64,000 nucleotides of DNA, taken from positions 85,045-149,044 of the forward strand of contig JAVWTB010000011.1 of the NCBI GenBank assembly GCA_036667955.1. Direction: 5' to 3'. This DNA comes from Comamonas sp. GTDB lineage: Bacteria; Pseudomonadota; Gammaproteobacteria; Burkholderiales; Burkholderiaceae_C. Both the position numbers and the translations under genes were made by a program. The notes beneath the pieces were generated by a model, which did not search any database, was not told where the DNA came from, and saw only the letters and a program-made list of their open reading frames with translations. Within the stretch, counting starts at the first letter, position 1, and each line of letters opens with the position of its first letter. This document shows positions 1,879 through 27,804 of this stretch, piece after piece.

Positions 1879-2486
1879 GCAAGCAAACCCTGCACTACCC
1901 GAACAGCACCGAGCCCCAGGTCTTCACCCAAGCCCAACTGGACTGGCTGCCCTGGATCGAGCCCCTGCCGGAGGCCGAGCTGACCCCGCGCCATGTCGAA
2001 GGCCTGGTCGATGCCTCACGTGCCAAATCACCGTACTTTCGGCTGCTGGCCCGCGACCCCGACACCTTGGGCGCACGCACCCGCACCGACAAGGACATCT
2101 TCTACAACCCCGATGGTGGCCTGCCCCGCGCCGAGCGGGAGCTGGCCGCTGCGGCCACCTCTCGCCTCAATGGCTGCATTTACTGCGCCTCGGTGCATGC
2201 CCGCTTTGCCTCGCACTTCTCGCGGCGCGAGGAGGATGTGCAAAAGCTGCTGGACGTCGGGGTGCAGGCCGATCTGGGTGAGCGCTGGAACGCGATCGTT
2301 GCCGCCTCGGTGGCCTTGACCGAGACCCCGCTGGCGCTGGATGCTTCGCATATCGATGGCCTGCGCCAGGCCGGGCTGGATGACTATGCGATTGCAGACG
2401 CCTTGCAAGGCGCGGCCTTCTTCAACTGGGCCAACCGGCTGATGCTGAGCCTGGGCGAGCCGGCACTGGAAGCTGCGCAGGGCTAA
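1875..2486 (+). CDS. Alkylhydroperoxidase (AhpD-like) domain protein, Avi_7169-like
   Basis: ERELAAAATSRLNGCIYCASVH with CxxC; FFNWANRLMLSLGEP; 4-bp overlap with the upstream gene. Confidence 0.88.
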   Translation: MSKQTLHYPNSTEPQVFTQAQLDWLPWIEPLPEAELTPRHVEGLVDASRAKSPYFRLLARDPDTLGARTRTDKDIFYNPDGGLPRAERELAAAATSRLNGCIYCASVHARFASHFSRREEDVQKLLDVGVQADLGERWNAIVAASVALTETPLALDASHIDGLRQAGLDDYAIADALQGAAFFNWANRLMLSLGEPALEAAQG

Positions 2487-2701
2487 ATCGGCCCAGCAGC
2501 TTGAAATGCCCTGGGAGGATGCGCAGCGCCACCCAGGGTTTTTTCTGGGCGAGGTCGATGCCGGGCTGGAGAAGAAAAAGAGCATACTTTGGCGCTGTAT
2601 CTCTTTTAATCCCTGGCTTCCATGCGCTTTCTTCTGCATCCCTCTAGCGGCGGCATATCGCAGCAGCTCTCTGCGCCCAGGCTGCTGGCGAGGGGCTGGG
2701 T

Positions 2702-4846
2702 ATGAAGCCCTTGCAAATTCTGCGCGCATGGCGGTGGCTGCTGGCGCTCAGCCTCAGCGTGGCCAGCGCCCAGGCTGCACCGCCTGACTACCAGGCTCTG
2801 TATGCCCACCCCGAGCGCCCCATGCCGGTGCAGCAGCACTGGCAGTTGCAGCCCGTGTCTGCGGCTGAGGCGCGGTGGGCCGATATCTTCATGTTCGAGA
2901 CCCGCTTCGATCCCCGGTTGATGGACCGCGTGCGCTGGCTCAGCCTGAACCCCGGTCAGAACACCGGCTTGTCGCCGGCCTTGTTCGATGCCTTGGAGGG
3001 GCACACGCTGTTCCTGTCCCCTGCAGCGCGCAGCTTGTGTGGTGGTCGCTGGCAGGTGGTGCGGGTGGAATCCATCAGCAACTCCAGCGTCAACAACACC
3101 TTGCAGCCTGCCACCAAGGTGTGGCTGGTGCAGCACAAGCCAGGCGGCAAGCTGGAGGCCACCACCGCTTACGGGCGCGTGGATGCGCAAGGCGACTGGG
3201 CGGTGCCGCCGCTGCGCTGCGACGGCAGCACCACGAACGCGGAATACTCCCCCGATGCCATCGCTTATCTGATGCCCGACGATGCCAAGCCCTTGCCGTC
3301 GAACCTGACGCTGGATCTGGTGTATGCGCAGCCGGGCCTGCGCGATGCCCGGGGCCGCTGGCTGGCGCCCGTGCCGCCCAGCGATATCACAACTGCGCAG
3401 TGGATGGACTACAAAAAGCAGATCATCACGCCCGGCTCGGGCGGCTCAGGTCTGATTGATCCACAAGGGCGCATGGTGATTCCGTTCATCTTTGGCAATT
3501 TGCCCGATGCGACGGCACAGCGCCGCATCGAGCTGTGCAGCAACGCCGGGCTGCGCCTGCTGCGCGACTCCCGAACGCCCCGCGTGTGCCGCTGGCAGCG
3601 CCTGCAGCGCAGCCAGGGCGGGGCTGCACTGCGGCCCGTCCTGGATGCGGCGAGCGGGCGATGGGGCTACCAGAATGCGCGCGGCCAATGGGTGATTGCG
3701 CCGCAGTTCCGCGAGGCGCGCCGGTTTCGCCATGGCTACGCGGTGGTGACCGCCGCTTTCCCGGATGCCTGGCGCCCGCCCGGCTGGCAAGACGAGGCGC
3801 CGATGATTCTGCAATTTTGGCGCATGGGCCGCTACTGGGTGGCTGAGGCGCTGGTGCGCAACGCATCGACCTCTGGCGAGTGGGCCCTGCGCGTTGGCCT
3901 GATGAACGATGCCGGGCAGTGGCTGGTGCCTGTGTCGCAGTACCCGCTGCAGATTACGGTGCCGTCCCCAGCCGGCGGCCGCAATGGCCTTTATGCCCAG
4001 ATGCTGGCGGCGCACTTGCCACCGCTGCTGGGCCGCAACGTGGAGATCAAGCATCTGCCCGATGCCAGCGTGGCCGACTACGACCGGGTGGCCGCGCAAG
4101 GCGGCGACCGCCAGGTCCTGTTCACAGCCATGACCCTTCCGCGCGGCGGCATTCCAGGCTTGCACCAAGGGCCGCCGATTGATATGGCGTTGCGATTGCT
4201 GCTGCCAGTGACCTTGGTCGCGTCGCAGCCCTTGGTGTTGGCCATTGACAGTACACAAGCCGAGTCGCTGGGCATTGACAGCACCGACGCGATGCTGGCC
4301 TACGCAAGAGCGAACCCGGGTCGTCTTCGGGTGGGAACGGGGGACGATGGCTGGATCGGGCAACTGGCGTTTTCCGAGCTGGTGGCGCGCAGCGGTGTTG
4401 ACATGGAGCGCGTGGTCTTCCCCGGCAGGTACCCCGACTCCGATGTGGTGACGAAGGCGCATGCGGTGGAGCTGGTGTTGGCCCCTGTCAATGGCGTGGC
4501 CACAGCGGTGCGGCGCGGCCAGCTGCGGGTGCTGGGCACCACGGCCGACCCGGCCCATCCGCAAAGCCTGGATGGGGTCACCTGGCCCACGCTGGGCTCC
4601 CATGCGTCCCTGGCGGGTTTGGCGGTCTACGACCACTTCATCCTCTGGGCAGCGGCCAACTCCGACGCCGCTGCCAACCGCCAGCTGCAGCAAGCCATCG
4701 CCCAGCTGCTGGCCAAGCCCGAGCTGCAAAAGCAGCTGCAAGACATCCAGGCCGTGGGCGGTGGCGACTCGCCCGAGCATCTGCTGGCGCTGGAGGCGCA
4801 GATGCGCGAGGCCTGGTTGCGCGCGCTGGCCTTAGCTGAGCACTGA
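2702..4846 (+). CDS. Secreted protein: WG (KWG-type) repeats fused to a C-terminal Bug/TctC-like solute-binding domain
   Basis: Signal peptide ending SAQA; about 5 WG-like units (e.g. WGYQNARGQWVIAPQFREARRFRHGYAVV, GLIDPQGRMVIPFIF); then YPLQITVPSPAGGRNGLYAQMLAAHL..LGRNV, resembling the TctC N-terminus, and later LRVLGTT, GGDSPE. Confidence 0.75.
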   Translation: MKPLQILRAWRWLLALSLSVASAQAAPPDYQALYAHPERPMPVQQHWQLQPVSAAEARWADIFMFETRFDPRLMDRVRWLSLNPGQNTGLSPALFDALEGHTLFLSPAARSLCGGRWQVVRVESISNSSVNNTLQPATKVWLVQHKPGGKLEATTAYGRVDAQGDWAVPPLRCDGSTTNAEYSPDAIAYLMPDDAKPLPSNLTLDLVYAQPGLRDARGRWLAPVPPSDITTAQWMDYKKQIITPGSGGSGLIDPQGRMVIPFIFGNLPDATAQRRIELCSNAGLRLLRDSRTPRVCRWQRLQRSQGGAALRPVLDAASGRWGYQNARGQWVIAPQFREARRFRHGYAVVTAAFPDAWRPPGWQDEAPMILQFWRMGRYWVAEALVRNASTSGEWALRVGLMNDAGQWLVPVSQYPLQITVPSPAGGRNGLYAQMLAAHLPPLLGRNVEIKHLPDASVADYDRVAAQGGDRQVLFTAMTLPRGGIPGLHQGPPIDMALRLLLPVTLVASQPLVLAIDSTQAESLGIDSTDAMLAYARANPGRLRVGTGDDGWIGQLAFSELVARSGVDMERVVFPGRYPDSDVVTKAHAVELVLAPVNGVATAVRRGQLRVLGTTADPAHPQSLDGVTWPTLGSHASLAGLAVYDHFILWAAANSDAAANRQLQQAIAQLLAKPELQKQLQDIQAVGGGDSPEHLLALEAQMREAWLRALALAEH

Positions 4847-5021
4847 CTGGGATGAGCCTGCGATTGGTCAAATAGGCTTATAAAGCAGTTGCGTTAGACT
4901 GCTGCATCCTCGCGCGGGGCCTGCCCGCGCTCCCACCATGACTTTTTGCCGGTCCGGCGACTGACCATGCGACGGGTGCTCTCCAACCGCTCTCTGCTGC
5001 GGGCTGGCTGCGGCAGCCGGT

Positions 5022-6140
5022 GTGTCTGAGACGACCGTGCTGGCCCCCAACACCATGAGCACTTCCCGCCCCTTGCTGACCGAGAGCGCCCGAACCGATA
5101 TTGCGCAGCGCGCCTATGCGCTGGACACCCAGGCCGAGCTGGCCAGCACCGTGCTGCCGATGCTGGCCCACCATGACCTGCTGCGCACCGGCCTGCCAGT
5201 GGCGCAAGGCGGCCATGGCGGCGATGTGCGCGATGCCATTGCGGCGATCGCCGAAGTGGCCAGCCTGTCGCTGACGACGGCCTTTGTGTTCTGGAGCCAG
5301 CGCGCCTTTATCCACTACCTGCAAGCCAGCGGTAACGATGCCGCGCGCGAGCGCTGGTGGGATGCTTTGCTGCGTGGCGATATCGCGGGCGCGGTGGGCC
5401 TGTCCAATGTGATCAAGTTTCTATCGCGCATCGAGGCCTTGCAGGTGCAGGCCAAGCTGGTGGCGCAGGGCTGGTGCCTGGATGGCGTGCTGCCTTGGGT
5501 GTCCAACGTGCGCAGCCAGGGTTTTGTGGTGGCTGCCGCCGTGCAGCCCGAAGGCGGTGGACAGCCGATGGTGGTGGCGCTGGAGAGCGGCCTGCCGGGC
5601 CTGCTGCGTTCGCCCGATCTGGACCTGCTGGGCATGCGTGCCAGCAACACGGCCGCGCTGCAGCTGAAGCAAGTCCAGGTGCCGCCCCAGGCCCTGCTGG
5701 CGCAGGCGGGGCCCGCATACTTGAAGGCGGCACGGCCGGGCTTTTTGGGCATGCAATGTGCGTTGTCGATCGGGCTGGCGCGGGCCGCGTTGCAGGCCGC
5801 CGCCCAGGGCGGCGGAGCGCGTGGCCCCTTGCATAGCCGTGTGACCGAGGCCCTGCAGACGCTGGGCCAGATCGAAGCGGGCGTTTTGGATGGCGTGCAG
5901 GACCAGCGCTGGGTGGCCGATGTGACGCCCTTGTTTGCGCAGCGCATGCGCCTGGCCGCGCTGGTGCAAGAAGCCTTGCAGCTGGAGCTGCAGGCGACCG
6001 GCGGCCGCGCCTACCTGCAGGACCAGCAGCCCGATTTTGGCCGCCGCTGGCGCGAATCGGCTTTTATCCCCATCGTGACCCCCAGCCTGACGCAGTTGGA
6101 GGGAGAGCTGGCACAACATGCCGCGCAGGTGACGGCATGA
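5022..6140 (+). CDS. Acyl-CoA dehydrogenase-like flavoprotein
   Basis: ACAD fold motifs (SLTTAFVFWSQR, LDGVLPWVSN, LLGMRASNTA, GGRAYL...RRWRESAF); start uncertain (GTG 5022 or ATG 5055). Confidence 0.8.
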   Translation: MSETTVLAPNTMSTSRPLLTESARTDIAQRAYALDTQAELASTVLPMLAHHDLLRTGLPVAQGGHGGDVRDAIAAIAEVASLSLTTAFVFWSQRAFIHYLQASGNDAARERWWDALLRGDIAGAVGLSNVIKFLSRIEALQVQAKLVAQGWCLDGVLPWVSNVRSQGFVVAAAVQPEGGGQPMVVALESGLPGLLRSPDLDLLGMRASNTAALQLKQVQVPPQALLAQAGPAYLKAARPGFLGMQCALSIGLARAALQAAAQGGGARGPLHSRVTEALQTLGQIEAGVLDGVQDQRWVADVTPLFAQRMRLAALVQEALQLELQATGGRAYLQDQQPDFGRRWRESAFIPIVTPSLTQLEGELAQHAAQVTA

Positions 6141-6958
6141 CGGCAACGCTTGCACCCTCGCAGGCCTTGCAGGGGCGGGGCCTGCGCTATGGCTACCGTG
6201 CCAGCCAACCGGTGTTTTCCGGTATCGACATCGATATCGACAGCCAGGAGATTGTGGCCCTGCTGGGCGGCAGCGGCTGCGGCAAATCGACCCTGCTGCG
6301 CACCTTGGCGGGGCTGCAGCCGCCCGATGCGGGAACCCTGCAGTTTTTGGATGCGCCTTTGCGGGCGCCGCACCCGCGCGCGGCCGTGGTGTTCCAGCAA
6401 GCGAGCTTGCTGCCCTGGCTGACTGTGCGGGACAACGTGGCCTTTGGCCTGGACTTCAAGCACCAGCCCCCGGCCACGCAGCAGGTGATTGCGCAGCGCG
6501 TGCAGGCCAGCATTGAGGCCGTGGGCCTGCGCGGCAAGGAAAAGTTGTTCCCGGCCCAGCTCTCGGGTGGCATGGCCCAGCGTGCGGCGCTGGCCCGTGC
6601 GCTGGCGCGCGAGCCGCGCCTGCTGCTGGCCGATGAGCCTTTCTCGGCGCTGGATGTACTCACCCGCAGCGACATGCAGGCGCTGCTGGTGGAGGTGGTG
6701 CACCGCTGGCATACCGCTGCCTTGCTGGTCACCCACGATATCGACGAAGCCCTGCTGGTGGCAGACCGCGTATTGCTGATGGGCAGCACGCCCGATGTGC
6801 AGGGCGGCGCAGGCCGCATTGTGCAGAGCTGGCGCATCGACATTCCCCACCCCCGGCGCATCGACGACGAGCGCATTGCGGCCATGCGGCTGGAGATACT
6901 GCATGCGCTCCAGGCATTGCGCAGCCCAGCGACCAGTCCCGCAGACAGCCCAGTTTGA
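6137..6958 (+). CDS. ABC transporter ATP-binding protein, nitrate/sulfonate/taurine type
   Basis: Walker A GGSGCGKS, signature LSGGMAQR, DEPFSALD, VTHD. Confidence 0.95.
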   Translation: MTATLAPSQALQGRGLRYGYRASQPVFSGIDIDIDSQEIVALLGGSGCGKSTLLRTLAGLQPPDAGTLQFLDAPLRAPHPRAAVVFQQASLLPWLTVRDNVAFGLDFKHQPPATQQVIAQRVQASIEAVGLRGKEKLFPAQLSGGMAQRAALARALAREPRLLLADEPFSALDVLTRSDMQALLVEVVHRWHTAALLVTHDIDEALLVADRVLLMGSTPDVQGGAGRIVQSWRIDIPHPRRIDDERIAAMRLEILHALQALRSPATSPADSPV

Positions 6959-6998
6959 AGTCCCCGACAGCGAAACATTACAAACGAGGAGAGAACCC

Positions 6999-8219
6999 AT
7001 GACTTACCAACATATCTGTACGTCCAGCCACTGCGACTGCGGCATCAGCCGCCGCGACTGGCTGCGCATTGCCGCCATTACCGGCGCAGCCGCCACGCCT
7101 TTGCTGCGCGCAGGCGATGCCTTTGCACAAAAGTTCAAGGGCGACGATGTGCCCGTGCGCATCGGCTACCTGGCGATTACCGATGCCACGCCATTCTTTG
7201 TGGCGCACAGCCGCAAGATGTTTGAGGCCGAAGGTTTGCAGACGGAAAAGCCGCGCCTGTTTCGCAGCTGGGCGCAGCTCATCGAGGCCTTTATTGCGGG
7301 CCAGGTGAATGTGGTGCACCTGCTCTCGCCCACCACCTTGTCGGTGCGCTATGGCTCCAAGTTCGGGGCCAAGGTGGTGGCCTGGAACCATATGAGCGGC
7401 TCGGCCATCACCGTGGCCCCCAACATCAACAGCGTGGCCGATCTGGCGGGCACCACCTTTGCGATTCCGTTCTGGTACTCCATCCACAACATCCTTATTC
7501 AGCAGGTGCTGCGCAAGAACGGCCTCACGCCGGTCACCAAGCCCAAGGGCACAGCGCTGGGCGCCAAAGAGGTGAACCTGGTCATCGTGCCGCCCGCCGA
7601 GATGGTGGCGGCGCTGGCCTCCAAATCGGTGTCGGGCTTTATCGTGGCCGACCCCTTCAATGCCGTGGCCGAGACCATGGGTGTGGGCAAGGTGGCGCGC
7701 TTCCTGGGCGATATCTGGAAGGACCACGCCTGCTGCCTGGTGACCCTGTCCGAGCGTGACATTGCCGAGCGCCCCGAATGGGCGCAGCGCGTGACCACGG
7801 CCATCGTCAAGGCGCAGCTGTGGACGCGCGAGCACATGGGCGAGACGGCCGAGCTGATGTCCAAGGACGGCGCCAACAAGTACACGCCGCACCCGCTGCC
7901 GGTGCTGCAAAAGGTGTTTGACCTGAAGGACTTTGAGCAGTACCGCGCCAAGGGCGTGCTGCAGCACCCCGAGTGGAACCAGCGCCGCATCGACTTCCAG
8001 CCCTATCCCTTCCCCAGCTACACGCAGGAGCTGGTCAAGGCCATGCAGGGCACCTTGATGGAAGGCAATGTGGACTTTATCCGCGAGCTGGACCCGGCCT
8101 TTGCGGCCAAGGATCTGGTCGATGACCGCTTCGTCAAGCAGGCGCTCAGCCAGGTGGGCGGGCTCAAGGCCTTTGGCCATGCGGATGACTTCAGCCGCAA
8201 GGAAGTGATCGCCGCATGA
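6999..8219 (+). CDS. ABC transporter substrate-binding protein, NrtA/CmpA-like, Tat signal
   Basis: Start ATG 6999 after GAGGAGAG; twin-arginine SRRDWL; VRIGYLAITDATP, FAIPFWYSIHN, WKDHACC. Confidence 0.9.
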   Translation: MTYQHICTSSHCDCGISRRDWLRIAAITGAAATPLLRAGDAFAQKFKGDDVPVRIGYLAITDATPFFVAHSRKMFEAEGLQTEKPRLFRSWAQLIEAFIAGQVNVVHLLSPTTLSVRYGSKFGAKVVAWNHMSGSAITVAPNINSVADLAGTTFAIPFWYSIHNILIQQVLRKNGLTPVTKPKGTALGAKEVNLVIVPPAEMVAALASKSVSGFIVADPFNAVAETMGVGKVARFLGDIWKDHACCLVTLSERDIAERPEWAQRVTTAIVKAQLWTREHMGETAELMSKDGANKYTPHPLPVLQKVFDLKDFEQYRAKGVLQHPEWNQRRIDFQPYPFPSYTQELVKAMQGTLMEGNVDFIRELDPAFAAKDLVDDRFVKQALSQVGGLKAFGHADDFSRKEVIAA

Positions 8220-8998
8220 TGCAGACGGGCAACGACAGCGGCAAACGCTGGGCGGCGCGCCTGGCCTGGCCGCTGCTGGGCATGGCCATCACCCTGGGGC
8301 TGTGGGCCGTGGCGGCGCAGCACATCTCTGATGTGGAGGTCATCCGGGCGGCGTTTGCGCCGCAGGCCGGGCTCAAGGCACTGGCGCATCTGCTGGGCAG
8401 CGGCGAGCTGTGGCCGCACATCAGCACCAGCCTGCAGCGCATTGCGATTGCACTGGCGTTGGCCATCGCCATCGGTGTGCCGCTGGGCCTGTGCCTGGGG
8501 CTGTCGCCGCTGTTTGCGCGCATCAGCGGGCCGACTTTCCAGTTCCTGCGCATGGTCTCGCCCTTGTCGTGGATGCCGCTGGCGGTGATGGCGCTGGGTG
8601 TGGGCGAGGCACCGGTGATTTTTCTGCTGGCTTTTGCCACCGTCTGGCCCATCATGCTCAACACTGCCGCTGGTGTGGCCGCGCTGGACCCGGCCTGGAT
8701 GCGCCTGGCGCACAGCCTGTCAGCCACGCGCTGGGAAACCATTGCCCGGGTGGTGCTGCCCGGTTGCATCAGCCATATCCTGACCGGCTTTAGGCTGGCG
8801 GTGGGCATTGGTTGGATTGTGCTGGTGCCCGCTGAGATGCTGGGCGTCTCCAGCGGTCTGGGCTATTTTGTGCTCGATACGCGCGATCGCCTCGCTTACG
8901 ACGAGCTGATGGCCGGCATCGTGGTCATTGGCTGCCTGGGCTTTGTGCTGGATTGGTTGGCCCGCACGGTCAGCGGCCACTGGATGCAGCGGGGCTGA
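8216..8998 (+). CDS. ABC transporter permease, nitrate/sulfonate type
   Basis: Hydrophobic; LRMVSPLSWMP, VVLPG...ILTGFRLAVGIGWIVLVPAEMLG. Confidence 0.95.
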   Translation: MMQTGNDSGKRWAARLAWPLLGMAITLGLWAVAAQHISDVEVIRAAFAPQAGLKALAHLLGSGELWPHISTSLQRIAIALALAIAIGVPLGLCLGLSPLFARISGPTFQFLRMVSPLSWMPLAVMALGVGEAPVIFLLAFATVWPIMLNTAAGVAALDPAWMRLAHSLSATRWETIARVVLPGCISHILTGFRLAVGIGWIVLVPAEMLGVSSGLGYFVLDTRDRLAYDELMAGIVVIGCLGFVLDWLARTVSGHWMQRG

Positions 8999-9029
8999 GT
9001 ATTGCGCACCCATAGCGCACCCATGGCGT

Positions 9030-11231
9030 TCACTGGGGCACAGTGCTTGCGCTGCCGCTGCCGCTGCCTTTGCTTTGCAGCGCCAAGCTGCGGATACCCG
9101 CAAAGTCAAACTGCTCCAGCCGGTCCAGCAGCGCTGCGGTAAAGGCTGCATGGGCCGTGCTGTTGGCATGGTGGTTGATCCAGCCCTCGATGTCGCTCAG
9201 GCGGCCATGCAGAGCCAACTCGGCCAGCTCATCCAGCGCAGCATCGCCGGGTGTGGCGACGGCCGCCAAGGTGGCCAGGGCAGGGCGGGTCGGCTGTCCC
9301 GGCCATGCGCTTGCCGTTGTCGAGCCGCTGGCCGGCGCTGCGCCGCTGGCATCGATGACCGGTACACATAGTTCGAAGGTAAAAGTGGTGCCCTGGCCGG
9401 CGGTGCTGCTCACCTCCAGGCTGCTACCCATGGCCATCAGGATGCGTTGCGAGATGAACAGCCCCAGGCCGGTGCTGCCGCCTTCGGCCTGGATCTGCTG
9501 GAAGGCATCGAAAATATCGGGTTTTTGGGCCAGGTCGATGCCAATGCCGGTGTCGCTCACGGAGAGGTGCAGCACACAGAATTCCCCCTCCTGCCGGGCG
9601 TTGACCATCAGGGTCACCACGCCATCGCGGGTGAACTTGGCTGCGTTGGAGACCAGGTTCAGCAGCACCTGTTGCAGGCGCTTGCCATCCATCGCCATGC
9701 GCCGGGGCAGGACGCCGCTCAGGTGGCAGAGGAAGTGGTTGTTCTGCTGCGCGCACAGCGAGACGGCGTAGTCGGAGATGTCATCGAGCAGAGCCTGCAG
9801 ATCGATGGGCGCGGGGCGCACGGCCAGCGGCTGCAGCTCGGACTTGGCGTACTCCAGCAGCTCATCGATCAGGTCGAGCTGGTATTTGACGCTGCGCTGA
9901 ATGGTCTTGACCAGCGCTTGCTGCTTGGGGGGCGCATCGGCCAGCAAGAGTTCGGAGTAGCCCTTGATCGTGGCCAGTGGCGCGCGCAGATCATGGCCGA
10001 TATAGCCCAGCACCTCGACCTTCTGGCGCTCCTTGGTCTGGGCATCGCTCAGCGCCGTGCTCAGGTTGGCATTCAAAGCCGAGGTCAGCATGGAGGCGTA
10101 TTTCTCATCCTGGCGGCGCACCACCATTTGGCCCAGGATATGGCAGGACAGCAGGATCAGCACGGTGCCGACGGCGGCCACCAGAACCGCCGTCCACAGG
10201 TGCTGCTCACGGATGGCGGCCAAGGGCTCCAGCGATGCCAAGGTCAGCAGCTGGTAGTGCGTATTGTTGAGCGGCTGGCGCTTCATCACGTAGGGCCTGC
10301 CATCCACCAGCCATTGGCCGGCAACGCCGTTGGTTGCCACCGGGTGGATGTCCATCGCATCGCCCAGCTCCTCTCCATCGTCATCGTCCGAGGGGTGCAG
10401 CACGCCGGCTGGCAGCATCGCGGCCACATTGCGCAGCATGAAGGGCTCGGACGAGCTGGTGGTGACGCGCCCCTGGCGGTTGACGATCAGCGCAATATGC
10501 CTACCCGTCAGGTAGTGCGCCATATCGGGCGCATCAAACTTGACGGTGACGGAGCCCTGCACCTCGTCGTTGGCATCGTCAATGCGGCTGGCCACGAAAT
10601 ACGAGGGAGTCTTGTTGATGCGTGCAATGCCAAAGGAGTGGCCGCTGCCGTCGCGCAAGGCGTTGTTCAGGTAAATGCGCCCCGCGTAAATCATGCCAAC
10701 GATGCTGTCCGGTGCCGCCCAGTTGCTGGCCGTGACGGTGTCGTCAGACAGGTTGTTCTGGTAGATGCGGGCATAGCGCAGGTCGCTGGCCAGCGCGTCC
10801 ATGAAGTCACCCACCTTGCGCACCAGCGGGTCCGTGGTGAACTGCGCGGCTCGCTGCTGGCGGGTCAGGGCTTCCGCACCGGGCTGGTCCTCGCGGTAAC
10901 GGGTAGCGAGCTGGATCACCTGGCTCTGGCTGGCCACCATGTTGGCCACGCTCACCATCTGGGTAAAAAGCCGGTCCACCACACGGGCGGTGGTCTCGGC
11001 CTCATAGGCGGCGCTCGATGCCTGGCTCTGGGTCCACTGGGTGGCGATGCGCTGCGATATCCACCAGCCCAAAGCGGCCACCAGACACAGCCATAAAAGC
11101 ACCAATGCAGCGGTGGCTCTGCGCACCAGGGGCAGCATCTCCCGTCCGCGTTTCATGGTGGGTGGCGGTGCTATGCCCGTCTTGCCACGGCCGGAATCGG
11201 CGGGCTGCGCACTGGTGTCGAGGGTGACCAT
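9030..11231 (-). CDS. Sensor histidine kinase with DctB-like periplasmic Cache domain
   Basis: Two TM segments flanking a Cache-like region (GRIYLNNAL..G.GHSFGI..INKTPSYFVASRI); H-box GHDLRAPL; N-box NLVSNAAKFT; G boxes DTGIGI, GSTGLGL; start uncertain (ATG 11138 plausible). Confidence 0.9.
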   Translation of the reverse strand: MVTLDTSAQPADSGRGKTGIAPPPTMKRGREMLPLVRRATAALVLLWLCLVAALGWWISQRIATQWTQSQASSAAYEAETTARVVDRLFTQMVSVANMVASQSQVIQLATRYREDQPGAEALTRQQRAAQFTTDPLVRKVGDFMDALASDLRYARIYQNNLSDDTVTASNWAAPDSIVGMIYAGRIYLNNALRDGSGHSFGIARINKTPSYFVASRIDDANDEVQGSVTVKFDAPDMAHYLTGRHIALIVNRQGRVTTSSSEPFMLRNVAAMLPAGVLHPSDDDDGEELGDAMDIHPVATNGVAGQWLVDGRPYVMKRQPLNNTHYQLLTLASLEPLAAIREQHLWTAVLVAAVGTVLILLSCHILGQMVVRRQDEKYASMLTSALNANLSTALSDAQTKERQKVEVLGYIGHDLRAPLATIKGYSELLLADAPPKQQALVKTIQRSVKYQLDLIDELLEYAKSELQPLAVRPAPIDLQALLDDISDYAVSLCAQQNNHFLCHLSGVLPRRMAMDGKRLQQVLLNLVSNAAKFTRDGVVTLMVNARQEGEFCVLHLSVSDTGIGIDLAQKPDIFDAFQQIQAEGGSTGLGLFISQRILMAMGSSLEVSSTAGQGTTFTFELCVPVIDASGAAPASGSTTASAWPGQPTRPALATLAAVATPGDAALDELAELALHGRLSDIEGWINHHANSTAHAAFTAALLDRLEQFDFAGIRSLALQSKGSGSGSASTVPQ

Positions 11232-26254: not shown

Positions 26255-26854
26255 GTGCCCAACCTGCATCAGATCAAGAGTGAACAGACACGCGAGCGGC
26301 TGATGGATGCTGCGCTGGATTTGATGCAGGCCAAAGGGCTCGCGGGCCTGTCCATGCACGAGGTTGCGCGAACGGCAGGCATGACCACGGGGGCGGTGCA
26401 GCACCACTTCCCGTCCAAGGCCACGCTGATGCTGCAGATCATCCAGCGGTTGGTGCAGCAGATAGACACCGACGACAGCTTCTGGCCCTCGCCGCACTGG
26501 CCCTTGCCGCGGCGTGCCGACCACTTTGTGCAGCAGGCCTGGCAGCGGCTCTATGGCCAGCCGCGCTTTGCGGTGGCCTGGGAGGCCTACCTGGCGGTGC
26601 GTGCCGACGCGGCCATGGTGGCGCATATCCAGGCCGAGCGCGCACCCATCAACGACAAGCTGTTGCTGCGCATGGTCGGCAGTTTTCCCGAATGGGCCTC
26701 CACGCCTGCCGCTGAAGCGCGCTTTCAGCTGGTGCTGTCCTGCCTGCGTGGCCTGGGCGTGGTCGCTCCCTTCTCCAGCCCGGCTGCGATTGACCAGCAG
26801 CTGCAGCAGCTGTCCCTGCTTCTTCAATCTTTTTCCAGCGAGGTGACCCTTTGA
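26255..26854 (+). CDS. TetR/AcrR family regulator
   Basis: TRERLMDAALDL...SMHEVARTAGMTTGAVQHHFPSK. Confidence 0.93.
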   Translation: MPNLHQIKSEQTRERLMDAALDLMQAKGLAGLSMHEVARTAGMTTGAVQHHFPSKATLMLQIIQRLVQQIDTDDSFWPSPHWPLPRRADHFVQQAWQRLYGQPRFAVAWEAYLAVRADAAMVAHIQAERAPINDKLLLRMVGSFPEWASTPAAEARFQLVLSCLRGLGVVAPFSSPAAIDQQLQQLSLLLQSFSSEVTL

Positions 26855-27804
26855 CCAGAGCATTCCTTCTTGCCTGTGGCCTGTCGGCCTGGGCGCTCGG
26901 CGCCGCCGCCCAGACGCCCCTGCAGGTGATCGCGCAGCAGCCGCCAGGCAGTGGATCGGACGCGATGACCCGCGCCTGGGGCGAATGCACCGGGCGGCTG
27001 ATGGGGCGCCCGGTGGTAGTGCAGAACAAGGCGGGGGCCAATGGCATCCTGGCCATCAACTACCTCAAGGGCCAGCCAGCGGATGGCTCGTTTGCGATGA
27101 CGATTGGCATGTCGCAGATGACGATCACGCCCTATGTGCACCAGCAGATGCCCTATGACCCGCTCAAGGACTTTGCCGGTGTGGCGATGATTGGCTCGTC
27201 GCCGCTGGTGCTGGTGGTGCCGGCGGGCGCTGGCGTCAGCAAGCTGGCCGATCTGGAGAAGGTGGCCAAGTCCCAGGCCGGCGGGCTGAACTTTGGCTCG
27301 CCCGGCAAGGGCAGCCCGGCCCATTTGCTGACCACGGCGTTGACCGATGCCATGCACTGGCCTGCGACCCATGTGCCCTTTGTGGGCGAGAGCGCAGGCC
27401 TGACGGCCTTGATGGGCCAGCAGATCCAGGCGATGACGCTGGTGCTGAACACCGCAGCGCCCCAGGTCAAGGCGGGCAAGCTGGTGCCGCTGGCAGTGTT
27501 TGCCAGCCAGCGCTCGGCCGTGCTGCCCGATGTGCCCACCATCGCCGAAGCCGGTGGGCCGGCCGTGCTGGCGCGGCCGTCCTGGATTGCAGTGGTGGCC
27601 AAAAAGGGTACGCCGCCGGAGTTCATCAAGACCTTGAACGAGGCCACCAACCAGTGCTATACCGACCCGGTCTATGCCAATAGCATGGACAAGATGGGCG
27701 TGACCTTGATGCGCAGCCAGCCCGCCGATGTGCTGGGTTTTGCCGAGCGTGACATCGCGGTCTGGAAGCCTTTGATCGATAAATTGGGATTGGCCACGCA
27801 ATGA
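26851..27804 (+). CDS. Bug/TctC family tripartite tricarboxylate transporter substrate-binding protein
   Basis: QPPGSGSD, VVVQNKAGANG, LPYDPLKDF-like MPYDPLKDF, LPDVPTIAEAG. Confidence 0.93.
   Translation: MTRAFLLACGLSAWALGAAAQTPLQVIAQQPPGSGSDAMTRAWGECTGRLMGRPVVVQNKAGANGILAINYLKGQPADGSFAMTIGMSQMTITPYVHQQMPYDPLKDFAGVAMIGSSPLVLVVPAGAGVSKLADLEKVAKSQAGGLNFGSPGKGSPAHLLTTALTDAMHWPATHVPFVGESAGLTALMGQQIQAMTLVLNTAAPQVKAGKLVPLAVFASQRSAVLPDVPTIAEAGGPAVLARPSWIAVVAKKGTPPEFIKTLNEATNQCYTDPVYANSMDKMGVTLMRSQPADVLGFAERDIAVWKPLIDKLGLATQ

Follow-up and report, generated by a model that had tools for sequence, protein, structure and literature searches.

A fused WG-repeat and TctC/Bug protein of Comamonas as the likely single-chain form of a conserved two-gene periplasmic module

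Binding proteins of the tripartite tricarboxylate transporter (TTT) type, known as Bug or TctC proteins, form some of the largest gene families of Bordetella, Cupriavidus, Comamonas and their relatives, and almost all of them are orphans. The reason for the over-representation of Bug proteins is unclear, and a role in signalling has been considered possible; for example, the Bordetella TctC protein BctC contacts the sensor kinase BctE in signalling, besides its part in transport (PMC5812351). TphC, the terephthalate-binding protein of Comamonas sp. E6, binds carboxylates via T155, T242 and backbone or water contacts, and the first ligand loop of TTT binding proteins follows the motif P-F-x-A-G-G-x-x-D (PMC8556258). 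WG_beta_rep repeats are counted among the repeat families without a known structure (PMC8078820). Here, we describe a gene that joins a WG-repeat module to a TctC domain in one protein of 714 amino acids (aa), found in a 64,000-nucleotide stretch of Comamonas sp. DNA (assembly GCA_036667955.1, contig JAVWTB010000011.1, positions 85,045 to 149,044), hereafter called the window. On balance, we read this gene as encoding, in one chain, a conserved periplasmic module of two components, likely acting as a receptor or sensor rather than as a standard delivery protein for the transporter TctAB.

The same architecture, for which the original prediction had proposed a search in other genomes, is found in 32 clusters (90% identity) of fused proteins that are 705-750 aa long, 53-98% identical to the query and carry both Pfam domains in all cases. 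As a single open reading frame (ORF), the fusion occurs in Comamonas, Variovorax, Ottowia, Acidovorax and Lysobacter, and a scan with one genome per species located it in 11 named genomes, namely Comamonas sp. PR12, C. koreensis, C. sediminis, three C. odontotermitis, Comamonas sp. JUb58, two Variovorax, Ottowia thiooxydans and Lysobacter enzymogenes. Comamonas sp. PR12 holds the closest relative, with 86-87% identity over the C-terminal domain and 82% over the N-terminal module (N module). Counting the fused and split forms examined, the family remains small (~50 clusters at 90% identity) and is found mainly in Comamonadaceae. In the window, the ORF runs without interruption through both halves, as had been described, and its N-terminus, MKPLQILRAWRWLLALSLSVASAQA followed by Ala-Pro, displays the basic n-region, hydrophobic core and AxA site of a Sec-type signal peptide with no Cys at +1 or lipobox. 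While the predicted signal peptide was read from the sequence, the pattern A-x-A followed by AP at the cleavage site is kept across the family alignment. Pfam analysis of the whole protein identifies WG_beta_rep (PF14903, E 2.7e-13, 50.1 bits with a cutoff of 25.6) and TctC (PF03401, aa 498-682, 29.9 bits with a cutoff of 27, a small margin), the latter rising to 32.7 bits when the C-terminal half (C half) is searched alone; the C half thus matches the TctC profile, as anticipated. No NCBIfam model matches the fused protein, and Pfam matches to PGDYG (E 0.011-0.017), MF_alpha and VWA_4 were dismissed, all being under their own cutoffs. A check of the junction around 3930-3960, also proposed by the original prediction, finds 2602-4946 covered by contigs of four independent public runs (ice, soil, isolate and biofilm) that display substitutions and zero indels. 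Low-depth metatranscriptome contigs are few, and one of them crosses the junction (3904-4135), with DNA carry-over as a possible source. Elsewhere in the gene, a metatranscriptome contig of run X25 joins opposite strands at 4610-4685 with a depth of 3, a hairpin-like chimera that is most likely an assembly or library artefact.

In some Comamonadaceae, the two halves also occur as separate genes lying side by side. Stand-alone N modules form 10 clusters of proteins of 396-444 aa that end at the junction, and in 8/8 loci examined the immediate neighbour is a TctC gene on the opposite strand. These loci (L005, L006, L007/L008, L009, L010, L011, L012 and L093/L094) represent eight contig groups found by exact protein look-up; three of them are on Logan or ENA contigs shorter than 5 kb, and the evidence for L012 is a 99-aa fragment. 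As a control, an N module was found within 4 kb in 0/69 ordinary TctC loci. The partner TctCs are 338-377 aa long and match the C half of the window protein over its full length with 30-32% identity (E 1e-31 and 2e-34), in contrast to the ordinary Bug protein encoded in the window at 26851-27804 on the forward strand, which reaches E 0.001 over 140 aa. They carry the motifs GGR, LPRRG and YD, and nearly all end in R-W. Within the split clade, both divergent and convergent gene arrangements are seen (Table 1), so the adjacency has outlived at least one rearrangement. All split-type partner TctCs (L005-L012 and L093) start with a twin-arginine motif, [ST]-R-R-x-[VLA]-L, typical of the twin-arginine translocation (Tat) type, unlike the Sec-like signals of the stand-alone WG modules and the fused proteins, and the split partners appear to reach the periplasm by different routes. 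The fused form would be exported via Sec, and a cofactor inserted in the cytoplasm is therefore presumably not the reason why the split TctCs would use the Tat route. Scans of genome and metagenome contig collections returned no stand-alone N modules, and a scan of the metagenome contig collection returned no split-type TctCs. In four contigs of the convergent type, a YchJ_M-like gene (PF17775) follows the partner TctC on the same strand (L007:7355-7801, L008:2572-2868, L009:4253-4675 and L010:3165-3566), either overlapping it or within ~30 bp; it is missing from L006 and the divergent-type loci, and could be a lineage-specific third partner or plain synteny.

Split or fused, the WG module and its dedicated TctC clade form a conserved, co-evolving partnership of two putatively exported parts that are both under selection. 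In a maximum-likelihood tree of TctC domains, 16 fused and 6 split sequences form one clade against 45 ordinary TctCs, with a support of 100 in the Shimodaira-Hasegawa-like approximate likelihood ratio test (SH-aLRT), and the fused (99) and split (98) TctCs are each monophyletic. The tree of the N modules recovers the identical fused/split branch (100) and the same subgroups, and this mirroring is consistent with one fusion (or fission), after which the two parts co-diverged. The clade is further marked by the motif LPR[RG]G, present in 22/22 clade ORFs in the loci and in 0/100 ordinary TctC ORFs, and by a clade hidden Markov model (HMM), partly trained on clade members, that gives these at least 420 bits and ordinary TctCs at most 183 bits. 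Pairwise ratios of nonsynonymous to synonymous divergence (dN/dS, Nei-Gojobori) among Comamonas and Variovorax orthologues are 0.16-0.38 for the N module and 0.17-0.31 for the C domain, and both halves are under similar purifying selection. The TctC domain had been called degenerate, a description that does not hold for a distinct clade with near-invariant motifs of its own. The Lysobacter (Gammaproteobacteria) copies nest within Comamonadaceae, beside Variovorax, in the trees of both halves, which indicates horizontal transfer of the whole fusion. Copies from Lysobacter enzymogenes (L004, gene at 8001-10211, and L021) additionally carry a Pro/Ser/Ala-rich C-terminal tail missing elsewhere. 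Between C. koreensis (L014) and C. sediminis (L023), the synonymous divergence is 0.116 in the N module and 0.337 in the C domain, and this threefold gap points to an intragenic recombination close to where the domains meet.

The C half has the fold of a TTT binding protein. With a family profile, aa ~399-705 can be aligned to TphC over nearly its whole length (7NDR, E 3.5e-23), and likewise to the terephthalate-binding protein TBP (8HKA, E 1e-19), AdpC (5OEI), Bug27 and BugD. In addition, the C half of the AlphaFold2 (AF2) model matches TphC, TBP, Bug27, BugD, AdpC and MatC with target-normalised template modelling (TM) scores of 0.70-0.81 and E-values down to 5e-16, and it displays the two lobes of a type II Venus-flytrap fold. 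The full-length AF2 model has a predicted local distance difference test score (pLDDT) of 69 and a predicted TM score (pTM) of 0.55 overall, with most of the C half at pLDDT 65-92. Since both the full-length profile alignment and the superposition on solved TTT binding proteins cover the domain, it can be regarded as complete. Its position directly after the last repeat, noted earlier from the sequence, agrees with the AF2 model, in which the final WG strand (aa 407-412) is followed, without a linker, by the first TctC strand (aa 416-420). With its 714 aa and a module of 390 aa in front, the protein breaks the rule that TctC proteins are single domains of ~300-330 aa, and in the fused form no separate signal peptide precedes the C half.

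Within lobe 1 of TctC proteins, an N-[KR]-x-G-A-G-G loop and a D-G-Y-T-L segment are taken as family-wide, based on the Pfam consensus and the ordinary TctCs examined. In the alignment of the window protein, these elements read H-L-P-D-A-S-V in place of N-K-P-G-A-G-G and G-D-R-Q-V-L in place of D-G-Y-T-L, so the replacements named in the original prediction (HLPDASV, and GDRQVLF for DG-TLL) are real. The loop pattern N-[KR]-x-G-A-G-G is found in 0/22 clade ORFs and in many, not all, of 100 ordinary TctC ORFs. The pocket was mapped in TphC numbering by sequence alignment at ~24% identity, using the residues reported in PMC8556258. Compared with P-F-x-A-G-G-x-x-D, the first loop of the window protein has lost the Asp, gained the clade-specific R427 and kept the Gly-Gly; in every clade member seen, fused and split, the Asp is missing and an Arg follows the Gly-Gly. 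The pair Y643-D644 is invariant in the fused family and in 8 partner TctCs, and is replaced in the divergent clade members P0210 and P0211. The second ligand loop forms a series, from G-S-T-S in the split partners and G-S-T-G in the distant fused proteins P0036 and P0037 to G-W-T-G in the core fused proteins and G-W-(I/V)-G in the Comamonas branch of the window. The cleft-shaping Gly-Gly loop, the G-x-x-G loop, G575 and P578 are retained, and the fused family has GGR, LPRGG, DDGW, YPDSD and YD as near-invariant motifs. Judged from the alignments, the changed positions are themselves conserved and would be placed around the pocket. The Bug protein at 26851, the sole other TctC-like ORF in the window, scores 39 bits against the clade HMM; it had served as the normal comparator, yet is itself atypical, with a TTG start, QQPPGSGSD for PFxAGGxxD, and NKAGANG.

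The N module is predicted to be a beta-rich protein with few relatives. Modelled alone with AF2 from 24 diverse sequences, it reaches a pLDDT of 83 and a pTM of 0.76 and is nearly all beta, and the model of aa 247-412 displays approximately six beta-hairpin units. A Foldseek search of the modelled N module against the PDB returned nothing at E<=0.001 (TM<0.2), and a likeness to beta-propellers or glycoside hydrolase family 43 (GH43) was dropped, as it was based on weak Foldseek matches with TM below 0.2. Five repeat cores are found at aa 158-166, 212-220, 250-258, 322-330 and 399-407, with core G and W positions that are invariant in fused and split N modules. An earlier count of about five repeats is therefore fair, although Pfam scores one stretch strongly (aa 321-349) and one weakly (~aa 255-270). 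Four Cys are invariant in the fused family and probably form two periplasmic disulfides; the first pair is also kept in stand-alone modules, and the second is missing in P0042. The residues invariant across fused and stand-alone modules are mainly Trp (ten), Gly, Pro and Phe, and the alignments of both forms contain no conserved His/Ser/Glu/Lys catalytic set; for these reasons, the N module is taken to serve binding or scaffolding rather than catalysis. A profile search against a library of 1.84 billion representative proteins (50%-identity representatives) gave 17,145 matches at E<=0.001, thousands of which are generic WG proteins that match the canonical repeat alone. Among the best 150 matches listed, the whole N module is found in few proteins: the family itself, the more distant P0036 (748 aa) and P0037 (780 aa), both fused WG and TctC proteins, and the stand-alone P0038 (411 aa) and P0042 (433 aa), which stop exactly at the junction. 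The first half of the N module (~215 residues, aa 26-240) was matched within this small family alone, among the matches examined. The N-module HMM gives the window ORF 647 bits. Another protein of the representative library, P0035 (371 aa), is colinear with the fused family to approximately residue 280 and then continues into unrelated sequence; it looks like a frameshifted or truncated copy of a fused gene, perhaps a pseudogene or the result of misassembly in a single metagenome.

Table 1 Features of the fused gene in the window and arrangement of the two genes in split loci.
Feature	Position in window	Strand or arrangement	Basis or gap
Whole gene, WG-module/TctC fusion, 714 aa	2702..4846	+	single ORF, stop codon included; Pfam PF14903 and PF03401
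Predicted Sec-type signal peptide, aa 1-25, cut after ASAQA	2702..2776	+	read from sequence
N module, aa 26-412, beta-rich and Trp-rich	2777..3937	+	AF2; stand-alone homologues end at junction
Span with four Cys (C113, C173, C279, C296)	3038..3589	+	invariant columns in 32-sequence fused-family alignment
Span with five G-x-x-[DN]-x-x-G-x-[WM] cores	3173..3922	+	regular expression on translation
Canonical WG_beta_rep repeat, aa 321-349	3662..3748	+	PF14903, 40.7 bits on fragment, E 2.3e-10
Domain junction, aa 407-421, WLVPVSQYPLQITVP	3920..3964	+	AF2 strands E407-412 and E416-420
Complete TctC/Bug Venus-flytrap domain, aa 413-710	3938..4831	+	profile against PDB TTT proteins, Foldseek, clade support
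Altered first ligand loop P-S-P-A-G-G-R-N-G	3962..3988	+	alignment to TphC P29-D37
Clade signature L-P-R-G-G, aa 479-483	4136..4150	+	P480-R481 align with pocket-lining P86-P87 of TphC
Second ligand loop D-D-G-W-I-G-Q, aa 548-554	4343..4363	+	W551 for TphC S154, I552 for ligand-contacting T155
Y643-D644	4628..4633	+	D644 aligns with TphC T242 (ligand contact, hinge)
Split loci L005, L011, L012		divergent	gap 3-56 bp
Split locus L093/L094		divergent	gene called beside module ends ~20 bp away
Split loci L006, L007/L008, L009, L010		convergent	gap 15-65 bp

The fused gene is separated from its neighbours by gaps of 215 bp and 175 bp, and a simple scan of 2400-5100 found no promoter or terminator consensus. 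The neighbouring genes (93-2486 and 5022-8998) encode a luciferase-like monooxygenase, two CMD-type proteins (one without a Pfam match), an ACAD-like protein and an ATP-binding cassette (ABC) system, which comprises an ATPase, an NMT1/SsuA-type binding protein and a permease at 6137-8998. These flanks look like an organosulfur or alkanesulfonate-type utilisation cluster, into which the fused gene may simply have been inserted. Among the fused loci compared, the gene order of the window is shared by Comamonas sp. JUb58 only, and genomic context was rejected as a clue to function, as the flanks are unrelated in Ottowia, Variovorax and Lysobacter. No TctA or TctB was called in 14 loci, comprising syntenic and related loci within +/-8 kb as well as split loci. 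The earlier statement that no transporter membrane genes are adjacent thus stands for TctA/TctB; the ABC system downstream is unrelated. No histidine kinase is conserved beside the fused family in the fused loci compared, the Pfam listings of these loci contain no neighbours linked to defence, toxins or mobile elements, and the fused protein (P0001), the stand-alone module (P0038) and the partner TctC (P0185) matched no family in PADLOC-DB at E<=0.01.

Taken together, a mechanism can be proposed in which the WG module and the TctC part contact each other in the periplasm, a physical partnership that we regard as quite probable. The WG module would be a non-catalytic, disulfide-stabilised, Trp-rich beta-repeat, and the flytrap would close on a small ligand in a manner other than that usual for Bug proteins, which bind carboxylates through water-mediated, backbone-only contacts. 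The cleft would accordingly be remodelled rather than lost: the Asp and the PGAGG loop are gone, and charged side chains (R427, R481 and D644, with W551 in the fused branch) would be gained in the predicted pocket. An anionic or zwitterionic ligand, held by side chains, would fit Arg, Arg and Asp in place of the Thr, backbone and water contacts. Whether the flytrap domain has kept ligand binding at all is close to evenly balanced, leaning slightly towards loss. The WG module might then couple ligand occupancy to an envelope component, or to a signalling or uptake partner. As a tentative extension, and one that we hold to be rather doubtful, the WG module and its dedicated Bug/TctC protein could form a binary periplasmic receptor with a hard-wired partner, independent of TctAB. 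Several points weigh against the module and receptor interpretation. It draws on sequences and models, with contact between the halves deduced from fusion and adjacency; the full-length AF2 model is mediocre, and the pocket assignments depend on the distant alignment to TphC. In the Comamonas branch, the pocket has Ile at the T155-equivalent and Trp at the S154 position, which could mean that the pocket is filled and ligand binding has been lost in the branch of the window. Because the flanking genes vary between genera, context gives no clue to the ligand, and the split genes, lying on opposite strands, do not form one operon. The eight split loci are not eight independent observations, as they fall into two or three related groups, mostly on metagenome contigs. 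Finally, the association with the WG module is based on loci found from the module side, and at least five divergent TctC clade members (P0207, P0209-P0211 and P0213) are outside that set.

The main rival to the single-chain receptor reading is that small-molecule binding has been lost from the TctC-like domain, which would serve only as a structural or protein-interaction platform, with the WG module carrying the function. Such a pseudo-receptor or scaffold is unlikely for the family and strongest for the window's own branch (W551 and I552), where the stepwise drift of the second loop ends with a Trp at the small S154 site and the contact Thr lost; the clade-wide loss of the first-loop Asp and the NxPGAGG loop also fits, and the missing inter-domain linker suggests rigid packing. 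Yet the C half is under no weaker constraint than the N half and keeps its cleft-shaping residues, the canonical G-S-T-S loop persists in the split partners, and the clade-specific invariants (R427, P480/R481 and D644) cluster at TphC pocket positions instead of being spread over the surface. Next comes the possibility of an ordinary TTT uptake protein that delivers its substrate to TctAB encoded elsewhere, with the WG module helping to capture or concentrate the substrate. The fold is that of transport binding proteins, and the missing adjacent membrane genes prove little, since the majority of Bug proteins are orphans whose genes lie far away from those few that encode TctAB (PMC5812351). 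Still, we find this reading distinctly improbable, as TctA/TctB is lacking from all loci examined, family-wide conserved motifs have been lost in the clade, a rigid N-terminal module of 390 aa would be unusual for a protein docking on a transporter, and the WG module, not a transporter, is the one genetic partner that is conserved. It is plausible that the protein does something other than standard transport, as conserved motifs are lacking and no TTT membrane genes are nearby; of the proposal of a repurposed binding protein, the non-transport role survives, and the picture of a decayed ordinary Bug protein does not.

Two further explanations can largely be set aside. WG-repeat domains are present in varied multidomain proteins, and a retron survey reportedly lists WG_beta_rep, which could point to a defence, immunity or toxin-associated factor, as the original prediction had suggested in speaking of an immunity-like protein. 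This is hardly credible: the PADLOC search was empty for all three proteins, the fused loci lack defence, toxin and mobile-element neighbours, and the gene lies in ordinary chromosomal metabolic contexts. That a sequencing error around 3930-3960 merged a WG gene and a Bug gene could be imagined from the fact that the halves do occur as separate genes in other bacteria. The idea is refuted by the four independent assemblies without an indel, by the single ORF kept in all 32 clusters, from isolates and metagenomes, and in the 11 named genomes, and by the fused C half having no signal peptide; moreover, a frameshift could not join the split genes, because they are on opposite strands.

In the literature searched, no paper on the combination of WG repeats and TctC was found, and of the four papers that mention PF14903 none is functional. 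Public databases already list the sequences, named automatically as 'tripartite tricarboxylate transporter substrate-binding protein' or 'WG repeat-containing protein', so they are not categorically new, and the partnership, the definition of the clade and the remodelling of the pocket are not described in that literature. Fusion, together with the conserved adjacency of the unfused genes, reveals one TctC clade with a co-evolving partner. If the binary receptor were true, an 'orphan' Bug protein would for the first time have a genetically defined partner that is not a transporter. Such a system would then allow a concrete test of the long-standing idea that the large Bug expansions of Betaproteobacteria serve signalling or sensing and not uptake. 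It would offer a defined protein pair or fusion, with a remodelled pocket (Arg, Arg, Asp and Trp) that predicts a ligand chemistry unlike water-mediated carboxylate binding. The WG-repeat module, from a repeat class without a solved structure, gains a confident predicted model (pLDDT 83) and a functional association.

Compared with known systems, the closest solved relatives of the C half are the terephthalate-binding proteins TphC (7NDR/7NDS, Comamonas sp. E6) and TBP (8HK9/8HKA, Ideonella sakaiensis), with 22-24% identity and target-normalised TM scores of 0.71-0.81 in Foldseek; all are two-lobe, periplasmic Venus-flytraps from the same bacterial family. However, TphC is a single domain of 300 aa, encoded in a catabolic operon and working with TpiBA, whereas the window protein has the 390-aa module fused in front, lacks the motif Asp and displays Ile for T155, Trp for S154, Asp for T242 and Arg for P87. 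The N module shares the ~35-residue repeat at aa 321-349 with generic WG_beta_rep (PF14903) or KWG proteins. Typical members of that group consist of 6-17 tandem canonical repeats, in contrast to one canonical and approximately four degenerate repeats and a unique first half here. Substrate-binding protein (SBP)-like domains fused to periplasmic modules, as in MltF, act as a regulatory or ligand-sensing part. MltF (PDB 5AA4) is a weak fold match at rank 35 and serves as an analogy only, as its SBP-like domain belongs to another family, its partner is an enzyme and its domain order differs. The orphan Bug proteins of Bordetella (BugD, BugE and Bug27) have the same PF03401 domain and are likewise encoded without TctAB. 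Yet these proteins and BctC are single-domain proteins with canonical motifs, and their partners are a transporter or a kinase and not a periplasmic beta-repeat protein. By analogy, the contact between BctC and BctE is the nearest precedent for a non-transport role such as the one proposed here.

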